Part shown: in pieces, positions 3,368-64,000 of the stretch
Numbering within the stretch: position 1 is the stretch's first letter
How the letters are laid out: each line of letters opens with the position of its first letter
Assembly: GCA_963666485.2 (NCBI GenBank)
Contig: CAXXUO010000002.1
Location: 448,001 to 512,000 of the forward strand
DNA from: Syntrophorhabdaceae bacterium
Lineage (GTDB): Bacteria; Desulfobacterota; Syntrophorhabdia; Syntrophorhabdales; Syntrophorhabdaceae
Direction: 5' to 3'
DNA: 64,000 nucleotides
The notes under the pieces: generated by a model
What the model was told of the DNA's origin: nothing
Seen by the model: the letters and a program-made list of their open reading frames with translations, nothing else
Databases searched by the model: none
Position numbers and translations under genes: made by a program

Positions 3368-3455
3368 TGGTGCCGGAGGCGGGGCTTGAACCCGCATGAC
3401 CGCGAGGGTCACCGGATTTTGAGTCCGGCGCGTCTGCCAGTTCCACCACTCCGGC
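3368..3455 (-). tRNA. tRNA-Leu(CAA)
   Basis: GCCGGAGTGGTGGAACTGGCAGACG...CCGGA-CTCAAAA-TCCGG, long variable arm, GGTTCAAG T-loop, encoded CCA. Confidence 0.96.
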
Positions 3456-3589: not shown

Positions 3590-4897
3590 TTAGAAGAAAT
3601 ACCAGGCTGCGAACCTGTAAACGTCGCCGGTGCCTACGCGGTCATCGGTCACGCTAGGTGTAGATGCCAGGTTGTAGCCGGTGACCAGATGGGTCCACTG
3701 GAGCCCGAACCTGATCGCCTGGTTGGCGTCCCACAGCAGGTTGACTGAGTAGGTCTGGTTCATGTTGATGTTGTTGGGGAAAGCCATACGCTGATATTCG
3801 CTGGCGTTGTATTTCAGGTAGCCGTAAGCAAGGTTTGCCCAGAGCTTATCGGTGAACCAGAAGGACAACTGGGTGAAGAGGCCCCAGGCGGTCGGTGCCG
3901 CGGCGTCTCCATTCTCCATTCTCCAGTAGGAGCCTACGCTCGGGGTCGCTACCGGTGTCGGGACGTTGTTCCAGTTGTTGCCTGCGAAGTTCTGGCCGTA
4001 GAAGAAGTTACCGTTGAGAAGCATTGCGAACTGCTTGTTGCCCTGTTTTTCAGGGATGATCGGTACGCTGTACCTGAAAGCAAGCATCCAGGCGTTGACG
4101 GTATCATCGTAATACCCACCCGCACTCGATACGCCCGGGGCGGCATAGGTGGGAAGTCCGGCCACAGTCTGACCCGTGATCTTCTTTTCCTTGCCAAAGT
4201 AACCGCCAAAACCAAACTTCAGGTTGTTCGGGCCGATCTTGCCGCAGCGGTCGGTCCAGTACGCGAGCTCGGCCATGAAGCCCGGCCAGTTGCTCCTGGC
4301 ATAATCATCGGCCTGACGCGTAGGATTGGCACCTGACCACTCTGTGGCAGACTGGATACCGATCATGGCGTTAAACTCTTTCGTGAAGAAATACCTGAAG
4401 GCCATCTGAGGCATCCTGAGGCCTTTGAGGTAGGTCGACTCATCGTTGAAGCCGATCTCTGCGATATAGTAGGGCATACCCCACTGCTGCCAGTTCTGGC
4501 CCATCATCAATTCCGCTGAATCCCAGTTCAACGACATGAATGCATGCCTTAACTGGAAGCCGCCGTAGGAGTTTCCGGTCGATACGCCGCGGAAGTCACC
4601 TTCGACAAATGCGCTTGTCTTTGCTCCCCAGAGATCCGGGCCCTTGATGAGGAAATTAAGGCGGGTCTCACCAGCGGTCTGGAAGGTATTGCTGTAATCG
4701 TCAGCAAGCCAGCTGGTTCCTGAGGACGGTCTGCTGGCATAGTACATGTCAGCATTTGCATTCTGGGTGGTATAGCCCAGATCGTACTTCACAAAGCCGC
4801 CAAATGTTACATCATATCTGCTTGATACGCTGCCCGCATTGCTCAATGCCGGGATGACAAGGAACACAGCAAGCAAAACCAATACTAACTTCTTCAT
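3590..4897 (-). CDS. Outer-membrane porin, DcaP-like
   Basis: Signal peptide after RBS AAGGAGG; FGGFVKYD, TRLNF, FVEGDF, LRHAF, GQNW motifs; aromatic C-terminus AWYFF. An alternative GTG start at 4948 also has an SD. Confidence 0.8.
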   Translation of the reverse strand: MKKLVLVLLAVFLVIPALSNAGSVSSRYDVTFGGFVKYDLGYTTQNANADMYYASRPSSGTSWLADDYSNTFQTAGETRLNFLIKGPDLWGAKTSAFVEGDFRGVSTGNSYGGFQLRHAFMSLNWDSAELMMGQNWQQWGMPYYIAEIGFNDESTYLKGLRMPQMAFRYFFTKEFNAMIGIQSATEWSGANPTRQADDYARSNWPGFMAELAYWTDRCGKIGPNNLKFGFGGYFGKEKKITGQTVAGLPTYAAPGVSSAGGYYDDTVNAWMLAFRYSVPIIPEKQGNKQFAMLLNGNFFYGQNFAGNNWNNVPTPVATPSVGSYWRMENGDAAAPTAWGLFTQLSFWFTDKLWANLAYGYLKYNASEYQRMAFPNNINMNQTYSVNLLWDANQAIRFGLQWTHLVTGYNLASTPSVTDDRVGTGDVYRFAAWYFF

Positions 4898-5286
4898 TCT
4901 TGCCTCCTTAGTAATATTTTTTGCATCTTTGAACATACTTGTCGTCACTCCACCTCCCTCTATTAACTTTTTTTAATTTTATATCAACCGGCCGGAAAAC
5001 TGTCAAGGGAAAAATTAATTATTTTTAATAAAAAATCCCCTTTATTTCTTCCGGCCCGACGCTCCAAGGACGACCTTCCCTTATCTTCCCGGGCCCACGC
5101 GTCACGAGATAACTGGTCATAGCGTCCCTATGTCTAATATAACACGTCCCGGCGGCGGTTTAATCGTCCGTTTGTGCTATACTTAATTGGATCAACTTTA
5201 AGGAGGGACTATGGAGCCGCAAGGACCCGGGCTGCAGAATCTTTGTCAGAAGCATGGAAGGACCATTAACAGGTGAAATACTGGCA

Positions 5287-5694
5287 ATGATAGCTTTCAG
5301 GGTCCTCGATCATGATGCCGATATCCGGATAGAGGTCTCCGGGACATCCCGGCAGGAACTCTTTGAAAATGCCGCGAAGGGTATGTTTTCGCTTCTGACA
5401 GACCCCTCTTTCGTCCAGCCCGTGATCGAGAAGGATATCATCGTCAAAGGCAACGGCGAACTGCTCGTCAATTTCCTCAATGAACTTCTTTATGTCTGGG
5501 ACGTCGAGCGGTTCATACCGGCCGAGGTCTCCGTGGATTTCACACCGGATGGAGCACATGCCGTTTTGAAAGGGGAAAACTTCGACGAGCAAAGGCATGC
5601 CATTCAGCTGGAGATGAAAGCTGTGACGTACCACAATTTTATGATGACCGAACAAAATGACCTCTACCGGGCAACCTTCGTTATCGATGTGTGA
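5287..5694 (+). CDS. Archease (RtcB activator)
   Basis: N-terminal [19 protein letters not shown]-terminal EMKAVTYH...FVIDV; directly upstream of rtcB. Confidence 0.92.
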
Positions 5695-5716
5695 TCCCGG
5701 TGATCATGGTGCGATT

Positions 5717-7165
5717 ATGAGCGAGATCGAAAAGCTTGAAAAGATTGACGACAACCGCTTTCTGATACGTAAGAGCGGGGCAATGCGCGTCGACGGGGTA
5801 ATTTATCTCGATGAAGGACTCCTTCAGGGCCTTGGCAACGACGAGAGCTTAAAGCAGGTGGAAAACGTCGCTACGCTTCCGGGCATTGTGAGGGCCTCGC
5901 TTGCCATGCCCGATATTCACTGGGGATACGGTTTTCCCATAGGGGGGGTCGCCGCCTTCGATAAGGACACCGGTATCATATCGCCCGGCGGCGTCGGCTA
6001 CGATATCAATTGAGGTGTGCGCCTTTTGCGCTCCGTGTTGAGCGTACAGGACGTCCGAAACAAGGTCCAGGATATCGTGGAAGGCTTTTTCCGCAACATT
6101 CCGAGCGGACTCGGGTCACGGCGGAAGGATGTCCGGCTTACATACAGCGAATTAAAAGCGGTGCTGAAAAAAGGTGCGCGCTGGGCGGTCTCCAACGGGT
6201 TCGGCACATCGTCGGATATCGAGCACATCGAGGACGGAGGATGTCTCGAAGATGCTGATCCTGACATGGTCTCCGATAAAGCGTACGACCGGGGCAAGGA
6301 CCAGCTGGGAACGGTCGGAAGCGGCAACCATTTTGTGGAGGTCGGGTACGTTGCGGAGATATTCGATCCCGGGATCGCATCGGACTTCGGGCTTTTTCCG
6401 GGGCAGGCCACGGTAATGATACACACGGGCTCGCGGGGGCTCGGATACCAGGTTTGCGATGAATCGATCCGGCACATGCTTTCTGCAGCCGCAAAATACG
6501 GGATCGACCTTGTTGACAGGCAATTATGCTGTGCGCCGCTTGGATCGCCGGAAGGCAGCCGTTATTTCTCGGCAATGGCGGCAGCCGCCAATTATGCCTT
6601 TGCGAATCGCCAGATGATAACGCATTGGGTACGCGAGACGTTCGAACAGGTATTTCGGGCGAGCGAGGCATCGCTCGGGCTGTCCCTTGTCTACGATGTG
6701 TGCCACAACATTGCCAAAAAAGAGAAGCACGTCGTTGAAGGTAAAGAAGTCAACCTCTGCGTGCATCGAAAGGGGGCCACACGCGCCTTCCCTCCCGGCC
6801 ACAGGCTTGTGCCGGAAAAGTACCGCAAAGCCGGGCAGCCCGTCCTCGTCCCCGGGGATATGGGGCGCGCCTCGTACGTTCTTGCCGGGACGCACCAGGC
6901 AATGGAGGAAACGTTCGGCAGCACGTGTCACGGGGCAGGAAGGGTAATGAGCAGGAACCAGGCGTTAAAGGCAGCTCGTGGACGATCGATCGCCGGAGAG
7001 ATGGAAAAGCGCGGCGTATACGTGCGGTCAGCCAGCAAAGCGACCCTCGCCGAGGAGATGCCAGAGGCATACAAGGATGTTTCGAAGGTGGTTGAGGTCG
7101 TTCATCGTGCCGGCATATCAAAACTCGTGGCGAAGATAGTGCCTCTTGGGGCCATAAAGGGCTAA
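5717..7165 (+). CDS. rtcB: RtcB RNA ligase (482 aa) with in-frame UGA at 6011-6013, predicted selenocysteine U99
   Basis: ORFs 5657..6013 and 6017..7165 share a frame; [29 protein letters not shown] (family DINCGVR), [40 protein letters not shown]. Confidence 0.92.
6019..6054 (+). promoter_or_regulatory. Bacterial SECIS-like hairpin in rtcB
   Basis: Stem TGCGCTC(6027-6033)/GAGCGTA(6040-6046), loop CGTGTT with G at position 2, lower CCT/AGG pairing; loop starts 20 nt after the UGA. Confidence 0.7.
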
Positions 7166-7170
7166 AAGAT

Positions 7171-7285
7171 GGTTCAAGGTAAAAGGTTCAAGGTTCAAGG
7201 TAAAAGACCCCCCCCTATAAGACGGTTAATAATCAGGTTCCTGAAGTCCGCTTTTTCTTTGAACTTTGAACATTGAACATTGAAC
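7171..7285. repeat. Inverted pair of heptamer tandem repeats (GGTTCAA-type ... TTGAACW-type)
   Basis: ggttcaaggtaaaaggttcaaggttcaagg at 7171-7200; ttgaactttgaacattgaacattgaac at 7259-7285. Confidence 0.8.
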
Positions 7286-7739
7286 TCTTTTCTATAATAA
7301 TGGTAATAAATTGAGCATGGCTGAAGAAAACGTAAAGGCAAAGGGGACGTCCTTAAGAAAGTAAGTAAAGGCAAAGGGGACGTCCTTAAGAAAGTAAGTA
7401 ACTTAAAATCACCCGGTCCAGAGATAAGAACGACAGGGCGGTCCGTTTAGTTGTTTGAGGAGTTTCTTACTTTCTTAAGGACGTCCCCCAAATTTTTCCG
7501 GAAGGTTTGACAATGAATGAGTGGCAGTTGATATCCCTCCGCGATTGGAGTGTCTTGCACTGAAACAATCTTAACCGGAAGACTGTGACTCTTCATTTAT
7601 GAGTCTGTAGTTGTCAACGCTTTACCTGACCAGTGCAAATCAGGTTTCTGAAGTCCGCTTTTTCTTTGAACTTTGAACATTGAACATTGAACTCTTTTCT
7701 ATAATAATGGTAATAAATTGAGCATGGCTGAAGAAAACG
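7231..7739 (+). repeat. 102-bp direct repeat (7231-7332 and 7638-7739) covering the cobO promoter and first 5 codons
   Basis: aatcaggtt[c/t]ctgaagtcc...tataat...atggctgaagaaaacg occurs twice, with 1 mismatch seen. Confidence 0.92.
7376..7488. mobile_element. MITE/REP-like 113-bp element with perfect 23-bp terminal inverted repeats; left end tandemly duplicated (33 bp)
   Basis: GGGGACGTCCTTAAGAAAGTAAG at 7343-7365 and 7376-7398, reverse complement at 7466-7488; no coding capacity. Confidence 0.65.
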
Positions 7740-32430: not shown

Positions 32431-32507
<77 letters not shown>

Positions 32508-63233: not shown

Positions 63234-64000
63234 ATGATATTTAAACAATTTAATTTTGAGGGATGCCTTGCTTACATCATAGCCGGTGAAAGCGGCGGAA
63301 AGGGAGCGATCATAGATCCCTCCCACGACGAAAAACCTTTTCTCGATTTTATCGCTGCTCATTCGCTGAAGATTGACTACGTGATCGATACCCACACGCA
63401 TGTCGACCATATCTCCCTTGCCCCGAAACTTGCAGACATTCTCGGGGCAAAAACGGTGATGGGGCGTCTGACATCGCTGCAGAGAGAAATAGGATCGGAG
63501 GTCACCGATCTTTTCGGGATCGAGAAGATCCTTGCCGAGAACGCCCGGAACCGGATCGATGTCTACCTGGGAGACGGTGATGAGCTTCATATCGGGGATA
63601 TCACTCTTAAAGCGATCGAGACGAAGGGCCACACGCAGGACCACATATCTATTCTTGCCGGCGACCGTATCTTTTCCGGCGACACGCTGCTGATCGGGCA
63701 GTGCGGAAGGACAGACCTGCCGGGAGGAAGCTCCCAGGACATGTACGACAGCCTTTTCGGGAAATTCATGGCGTTATCCGACGATCTTTTCGTGTATCCC
63801 GCGCACGATTACAAAGGGAATATAAATTCGTCTTTAGGGTTTGAAAAAACGAACAATGTCTGCTTCAAGACAAAAAGGACCCCTGCCGAATTTGAAAAAT
63901 TCCTCAAGGGGCTCTTTCCTCCTCTTAACGCGAGTACGGGTAAACTGCAGTGCGGCCTGTCCATGGAACCGGACCAGCAATCCGGCGACATCGGCCCGCT
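63234..64000 (+). CDS. MBL-fold hydrolase, ETHE1/glyoxalase II-like (3' truncated by window edge)
   Basis: Translated by hand: MIFKQFNFEGCLAYII...IDP...DTHTHVDH...GHT...FSGDTL...GRTD...YPAHDY. Confidence 0.88.
   Translation, partial: MIFKQFNFEGCLAYIIAGESGGKGAIIDPSHDEKPFLDFIAAHSLKIDYVIDTHTHVDHISLAPKLADILGAKTVMGRLTSLQREIGSEVTDLFGIEKILAENARNRIDVYLGDGDELHIGDITLKAIETKGHTQDHISILAGDRIFSGDTLLIGQCGRTDLPGGSSQDMYDSLFGKFMALSDDLFVYPAHDYKGNINSSLGFEKTNNVCFKTKRTPAEFEKFLKGLFPPLNASTGKLQCGLSMEPDQQSGDIGP

Follow-up and report, generated by a model that had tools for sequence, protein, structure and literature searches.

In the described cysteine (Cys) forms of the RNA ligase RtcB, represented by Pyrococcus horikoshii PH1602 (PDB 1uc2/4dwq), the Thermus thermophilus protein (2epg) and human RTCB (7p3b), a single cysteine bridges the two metal ions of the active site. 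Site M1 is formed by His234, His329 and Cys98 and site M2 by Cys98, Asp95 and His203, loss of Cys98 abolishes every ligation step, and the RtcB cysteine has been seen as a sulfonic acid in one crystal (PMC9745838). A 2026 review of the tRNA ligase complex terms the metal-bridging residue 'invariant' (PMC13247085). Here we describe an rtcB gene in which the codon for this cysteine is an in-frame UGA. The gene lies in the window, the whole stretch of 64,000 nucleotides (nt) that was analysed (Syntrophorhabdaceae bacterium, contig CAXXUO010000002.1, positions 448,001 to 512,000, forward strand). An initial annotation, made from the letters of the window, had proposed that the gene encodes a selenocysteine-containing RNA repair ligase. 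Our analysis supports this proposal, and from sequence comparison we put the probability that UGA codon 99 is read as selenocysteine (Sec) at about 0.9.

The rtcB gene of the window shares with Cys-type RtcB a full-length match to the family, the other metal ligands, the His404 guanylylation site and the pairing of archease and rtcB genes (PMC3973293), but differs in having UGA in place of the metal-bridging cysteine codon, followed by a hairpin inside the open reading frame (ORF). A second class of related systems comprises the bacterial selenoprotein genes that use an in-ORF selenocysteine insertion sequence (SECIS) together with SelB. The SECIS element of the prototype of this class, Escherichia coli fdhF, provides the details with which the rtcB hairpin is compared here. 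The rtcB gene resembles these genes in having UGA where homologues have Cys, a hairpin immediately 3' of it, an apical-loop G-U step about 20 nt past the UGA, and selA, selB, selC and selD in the same genome. The difference lies in the product. RtcB is a nucleic-acid ligase dependent on guanosine triphosphate (GTP) and not an oxidoreductase, and Sec would bridge a binuclear site of the manganese (Mn) type instead of ligating molybdenum or tungsten.

Counted from the ATG at position 5717, codon 99 of rtcB is TGA, in frame, and it is the sole stop within the 482 codons. The two same-frame ORFs that the initial annotation had reported are parted by this codon. The read-through product matched Pfam PF01139 at 587.8 bits (cut-off 27) over the complete model (positions 1-426 of 426, residues 47-482 of the protein) and the P. 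horikoshii RtcB chain 1uc2/4dwq at E = 5e-179 in phmmer. The phmmer alignment places residue 99 on Cys98, the cysteine of the DxxC motif, as had been claimed, and D96, N204, H205, H236, H330 and H405 on Asp95, Asn202, His203, His234, His329 and His404. The metal ligands other than residue 98 and the nucleophile His404 are all retained, in agreement with the earlier description of the remaining RtcB motifs as intact. At the position of the cysteine that bridges both metals the codon is TGA, not TGC or TGT, and this is the finding itself; the gene is still classed as RtcB, and if the residue is Sec the chemistry is analogous, with a bridging residue that is not cysteine.

The gene is single-copy: at E <= 1e-30 the genome gave no second match to RtcB. 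Every protein database match at 84% identity or above is a C-terminal fragment of 362-379 residues, which bears out the earlier expectation that automated annotation would miss the gene, and the three full-length database matches that were inspected are all Cys forms. The best NCBIfam (release 20) match of this RtcB is an intein-containing RtcB model, below cut-off. Cys98 of P. horikoshii adjoins an intein splice junction (PMC4150793), and one position of RtcB is found as intein junction, metal bridge and, here, candidate Sec site.

The TGA recurs at the same column in related genomes. Of the 41 genomes in the same order, 39 gave an RtcB match; in 19 of the 41 there were, in all, 20 match rows that contained a single TGA, and a further genome (G002) held a broken copy. 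The motif column carried TGA in 19 of 29 order-level loci and TGC or TGT in the other 10. For order and phylum loci together, with one split match in which no motif was seen (L039) left out of the count, the column held TGA in 31 of 51 loci and TGC or TGT in 20. The alternation between TGA and Cys codons among relatives, which had been suggested as a check on the proposal, therefore occurs at exactly this column. A 401-genome sample of the phylum gave a match in 327 genomes at E <= 1e-40. Among the best 150 RtcB matches of this sample, beyond which there are 187 further matches, 48 had exactly one TGA; these 48 come from 13 families, and none falls below 62% identity to the query. We also searched species-representative genomes with a degenerate DNA pattern for GYDIN-TGA-G, which returned at least 119 matches. 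Eighty of these were retrieved, and 76 of the 80 proved to be RtcB in which U occupies the Cys column. By record titles, the pattern matches come from Thermodesulfobacteriota/deltaproteobacteria, Acidobacteriota, Nitrospirota, Binatia, Eisenbacteria, Gemmatimonadales and Polyangiaceae. The remaining four (a Methanomassiliicoccaceae archaeon, a Pelosinus, a Bacteroidales bin and locus L102) are not RtcB and were rejected as chance matches. Altogether, TGA stands at this column in more than 100 other assemblies.

The codons past the UGA are under strong purifying selection. Ratios of nonsynonymous to synonymous substitution rates (dN/dS) were calculated by the Nei-Gojobori method among 29 full-length TGA-containing forms, called Sec forms below. 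Downstream of the UGA the median was 0.066 and the maximum 0.188 (110 unsaturated pairs); upstream, the median was 0.096 (167 unsaturated pairs). All 31 Sec forms are free of a second stop. The maximum-likelihood tree that was built from 47 full-length proteins, with the Sec/Cys column masked, requires at least 8 Sec/Cys changes, at least 4 of them forced by well-supported branches, compared with a mean of 14.6 after shuffling, and 0 of 500 shuffles gave a number as low. Two Cys forms are placed close to Sec forms in this tree. One (L047, TGC, genome G220) is the sister of Sec form L034 and retains the complete hairpin, and the other (L027, TGC, genome G019) lies inside a Sec clade with the hairpin partly kept. 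Given these hairpin remnants and tree positions, both look like recent Sec-to-Cys replacements that carry fossil SECIS elements. Apart from two residues encoded by the hairpin itself, no second-site residues were found to track Sec versus Cys.

The hairpin that the initial annotation had drawn past the UGA is present as described. It begins 13 nt 3' of the UGA, UGCGCUC pairs with GAGCGUA in a stem of 7 bp that includes one G-U pair, and the loop CGUGUU has G at loop position 2, with 20 bases from the UGA to the loop. It appears in the minimum-energy fold of the rtcB stretch. An Rfam scan of window positions 5000-7400 at E <= 1 returned three irrelevant weak matches, none of them on the hairpin. 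Synonymous constraint was measured as the share of same-amino-acid pairs with an identical codon, in 8-codon segments along the gene (486 segments). Among Sec forms the top 7 of the 486 segments all start at codons +4 to +10 (0.62-0.74; gene median 0.43), whereas among Cys forms the same hairpin segment is one of the least constrained (0.24, rank 484 of 486). Of the 29 Sec forms, all 29 have CGC at codon +6 and 28 have AGC at codon +10; of the 18 Cys forms, 4 have CGC and 4 have AGC at these respective codons. The mean fold energy of the interval +8..+58 was -14.7 kcal/mol for Sec forms and -9.9 kcal/mol for Cys forms (Mann-Whitney p = 1.2e-4, a value that is overstated because the sequences are related). 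These comparisons point to an RNA-level constraint on the hairpin that is restricted to TGA forms, in which the hairpin is evidently kept, while in Cys forms it has mostly decayed. Relaxed selection on the downstream codons and an unconserved hairpin, which the initial annotation had named as outcomes that would speak against it, were not seen: downstream dN/dS is low, and among Sec forms, but not among Cys forms, the hairpin is the site of highest synonymous constraint.

Four different hairpins are found at the same site in different lineages (types A to D, Table 1). The loop G-U step is common to types A, B and C. Compensatory changes were present at 4 of 12 pairs of type D (18 sequences) and at 2 of 11 pairs of type C (7 sequences). 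In the type A/B stems, three core pairs are nearly invariant (69-74 of 74 sequences).

The genes for Sec insertion that had been suggested for a check, selA, selB, selC and selD, were all four found in the genome. The tRNA-Sec scored 73.7 bits (cut-off 47) and was called SeC with anticodon tca by ARAGORN, and selA and selB are each present in two copies over cut-off, an unusual duplication of the Sec machinery. The selD gene carries its own in-frame TGA in the motif GGGUASK, which identifies it as a selD of the Sec type. A small hairpin, AGGUC-CGGGU-GACCU, follows the UGA of selD; it was chosen by eye and is not from a minimum-free-energy fold. One selA-selB pair is adjacent on contig C3, where selA lies within a 795-residue open frame. 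The window itself holds a tRNA-Leu(caa) at 3368-3455 and a tRNA-Arg(ccg) at 32431-32507, both on the minus strand; the former was considered as a tRNA-Sec and rejected, with a sub-threshold score of 31.9 bits to the tRNA-Sec model. The archease reading frame ends with TGA as an ordinary stop, and a crude count of stop usage in 1252 long frames gave 531 TAA, 490 TGA and 231 TAG. Together these two observations argue that the organism does not have a TGA-reassigned code.

Sec machinery also accompanies the TGA form elsewhere. A selA gene was found in 39 of 41 order-level genomes, in 371 of the 401 phylum genomes and in 47 of the 48 TGA-form genomes among them. Two TGA-form genomes without a selA match, G028 and G394, both have selB and a Sec-type selD. 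Among TGA-form genomes from other phyla, 4 of 5 have selA and tRNA-Sec over cut-off. With these five, G028, G394 and the window's own genome taken together, Sec machinery was found in 7 of the 8 TGA-form genomes that were probed gene by gene.

We interpret rtcB as a working gene in which Sec insertion directed by SelB and the hairpin probably gives a 482-residue RtcB with Sec99 bridging the metals, and we assign this the same probability of about 0.9. During translation, SelB with GTP and Sec-tRNA(Sec) would bind the hairpin 13 nt 3' of the UGA and hand over selenocysteine as the UGA enters the ribosomal A site, so that translation would go on to the full-length protein. The Sec99 selenolate would then take the place of the Cys98 thiolate and bridge the two catalytic metal ions with Asp96, His205, His236 and His330. 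His405 would be guanylylated, and RNA ends with a 3'-phosphate or 2',3'-cyclic phosphate would be joined to 5'-OH ends in the predicted GTP- and Mn-dependent sealing reaction. The archease encoded upstream would be expected to assist ligation by RtcB.

Several observations weigh against this interpretation. Taken alone, the 66-nt stretch with the hairpin folds no better than its shuffles (z = -0.78; 44 of 200 shuffles at least as stable). As the single-sequence fold is at chance level, it is the comparison across genomes, and not this fold, that lifts the hairpin above chance. RNAalifold on 74 distinct type A/B sequences missed the stem and predicted only a spurious 3-pair helix, and covariation on the hand-named type A/B stems did not exceed that of shuffled data, in which the observed score was reached by 88 of 500 shuffles in one count and by 340 of 500 in the other. 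Since these stems are nearly invariant and without significant covariation, the RNA-level support within the window's own lineage consists of synonymous-site conservation and the contrast with Cys forms, and the evidence for RNA-level constraint on the hairpin is uneven. The near-universal presence of selA in the phylum means that co-occurrence with the machinery cannot discriminate between readings of the codon. In one Gemmatimonadales bin (G436) the TGA form is intact, but none of selA, selB, selD and tRNA-Sec reaches its cut-off; the bin may be incomplete, the contig may be mis-binned, or this form may not be read as Sec. The rtcB of this bin (L107) has a type C hairpin and is located some 3 kb short of the end of its contig, which measures 618 kb, in a bin of 7.1 Mb. 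An engineered P. horikoshii RtcB with Sec98 spontaneously cleaved a nearby peptide bond (PMC4150793), and Sec at this site is thus not automatically harmless. The engineered U98 protein has the same residue changed to Sec as proposed here, but it was obtained artificially with a UAG/EF-Tu system, without a SECIS element, and is self-cleaving, whereas the natural TGA forms are conserved under purifying selection.

Other explanations of the TGA were weighed against the same evidence. A sequencing or assembly error has a negligible probability, as contigs from two runs of one sample, possibly the source of the window, match with 0 differences, a contig of about 94% identity from a different study retains the TGA at 6011-6013, and the other assemblies counted above, more than 100, have TGA at the same column. 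A pseudogene whose codon for the catalytic cysteine had mutated to a stop would take just a single base change, TGC to TGA, and gene callers do split rtcB, which fits the database fragments of 362-379 residues. This explanation is strongly disfavoured and exceedingly improbable given that 31 of 51 related loci and 76 of the 80 retrieved pattern matches across phyla share the TGA without a second stop, that downstream dN/dS is 0.066, that archease is retained and that rtcB is the sole copy in the genome. In some selenoproteins UGA is read as Cys by a near-cognate tRNA under selenium shortage. A selenium-free read-through of the rtcB UGA, with Cys or Trp inserted by such a tRNA, would give an ordinary Cys-RtcB or mixed forms at low yield, and the G436 bin, with a TGA form and no Sec machinery over cut-off, speaks for it. 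Plain read-through, however, needs no hairpin, whereas an RNA-constrained one at bacterial SECIS spacing is found in TGA forms only, and Sec machinery accompanies the TGA form in 7 of the 8 genomes named above; we regard this explanation as very unlikely.

Translation might also stop at the UGA and restart, with a 98-residue N-terminal and a 382-residue C-terminal piece assembling as a split RtcB. The sequence GAGG and a GTG directly after the TGA in the window (6012-6019), and an ORF that is open from 6017 to the end of the gene, are compatible with such a restart. The two pieces would together be without the residue that is needed for every ligation step (PMC9745838), the distance from GAGG to GTG is merely 2 nt, and the GTG is unconserved, codon +2 being GTC in 16, GTG in 5, GTA in 5 and GTT in 3 of the 29 Sec forms. 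A split enzyme is on these grounds highly improbable, and insertion of Sec at codon 99 is the reading that we prefer.

As to why Sec would be favoured over Cys, our preferred reason is resistance of the metal-binding residue to irreversible oxidation, which we put forward tentatively, as a possibility and not as the probable answer. The active-site cysteine of RTCB is prone to metal-induced oxidative inactivation, against which PYROXD1 protects (PMC12263435); in metazoa the residue depends on this dedicated protector. The [NiFeSe] hydrogenases resemble the proposed RtcB in having Sec in place of a metal-ligand Cys, and their Sec seems to shield the site from irreversible over-oxidation (PMC13188914). 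They differ in being redox enzymes with another metal centre, and the parallel of purpose that we draw is by analogy. On the combined basis of RTCB cysteine oxidation and the hydrogenase analogy, Sec99 may make oxidation of RtcB reversible. Sec-RtcB might then be a built-in answer to RtcB oxidation that keeps RNA repair and tRNA ligation going under oxidative or metal stress, possibly with a shift in the choice of metal and a tie to selenium supply, a suggestion that we hold with similar reserve. A further comparison is offered by the Sec-containing methylated-DNA-protein-cysteine methyltransferase, likewise a nucleic-acid repair protein in which the active-site Cys is Sec in some bacteria (Table 1 of PMC13188914). 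The methyltransferase has an unrelated fold, and its Sec accepts an alkyl group and does not ligate a metal.

The features discussed are collected in Table 1. The archease gene, the partner reported directly upstream of rtcB in the initial annotation, was confirmed there by its Pfam match, with 22 nt between its end and the start of rtcB. Among the related loci, rtcB is immediately preceded by an archease homologue in 30 of the 31 with a Sec form and in 18 of the 20 with a Cys form, and the sole Sec-form locus without one is cut by a contig end. A scan for promoters and terminators around the archease-rtcB operon found nothing useful. On the opposite strand just upstream of the operon, window positions 3590-4948 (minus strand) hold an ORF of 452 residues whose start resembles a signal peptide and whose C terminus has an aromatic residue; it looks like an outer-membrane porin. 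Directly past the rtcB stop (window 7165-7200) stands a repeat of the type GGTTCAAGG, with inverted copies (TTGAACATTGAAC) about 80 nt further on (7255-7290). The genome contains the sequence GGTTCAAGGTTCAAGG 149 times, and each of the three runs with coverage shows a spike of contig depth there; the repeat 3' of rtcB looks like a dispersed intergenic repeat resembling repetitive extragenic palindromic (REP) elements. A crude scan of the window for further TGA-joined ORFs gave about 40 candidates, which were mostly noise and were set aside; the filter of that scan excluded rtcB too.

Table 1. Features of the archease-rtcB locus, hairpin types found 3' of the UGA, and Sec machinery genes of the genome. 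Plain coordinates are window positions.
Feature	Coordinates	Strand	Details
Archease gene, RtcB activator partner	5254..5694	+	Pfam PF01951, 122.3 bits, model 1-136 of 136
rtcB coding sequence	5717..7165	+	482 codons plus stop, one UGA proposed to be read through; Pfam PF01139
UGA codon 99	6011..6013	+	Proposed selenocysteine at the metal-bridging Cys98 position
SECIS-like hairpin	6027..6046	+	Stem 6027-6033 / 6040-6046, loop CGUGUU 6034-6039
Hairpin type A			UGCGCUC-CGUGUU-GAGCGY; this window
Hairpin type B			GCGCUCA-GGUY-UGAGC(C)GC; other bacterial lineages
Hairpin type C			GAAGACC-loop-GGUCUUC; other bacterial lineages
Hairpin type D			Long CUCAGGAGCAACCUC...GAGGUUGCUCCGAG stem; Nitrospirota
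selD (selenophosphate synthetase, locus L013)	G000:C2:512556-513467	-	556 bp past window base 64000
selA/selB matches over cut-off	G000:C3:20129-24445; G000:C1:229833-231191; C4:168611-170485		

A literature search that combined RtcB with selenoprotein, selenocysteine, SECIS or selenium, made outside subscription journals, brought up only the engineered U98 protein and no natural Sec-RtcB. Neither RtcB nor PF01139 is among the 119 selenoprotein families and subfamilies in Table 1 of a 2026 review (PMC13188914). The text and one supplement of BSepDB (PMC13326102, 111 families) and four supplements of deep-Sep (PMC12013277) hold no entry for RtcB, ligase, splicing or archease. The accessible part of the 2026 tRNA ligase complex review (PMC13247085) mentions neither selenocysteine nor selenium, and NCBIfam release 20 has no selenoprotein-type RtcB model. 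Sec-RtcB is a previously unlisted form of a known enzyme, and a selenoprotein family that is missing from current lists.

The selenoprotein catalogues, with 111-119 families in 2026, would gain a widespread family, and the annotation of a gene that is now split or labelled truncated would be corrected in more than 100 species. The metal-bridging cysteine of RtcB has been regarded as invariant and is a known weak point under oxidation. A natural Sec version would be a ready-made experiment on the role of this residue in the reversibility of oxidation, the choice of metal and the rate of reaction. It would also add to the examples of Sec that binds metal in a non-redox enzyme, here as the bridge of a two-metal site. 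If the oxidation reading is true, RtcB would be a widespread non-redox selenoenzyme in which Sec bridges a binuclear metal centre, found in at least seven bacterial lineages and with repeated switching between Sec and Cys.

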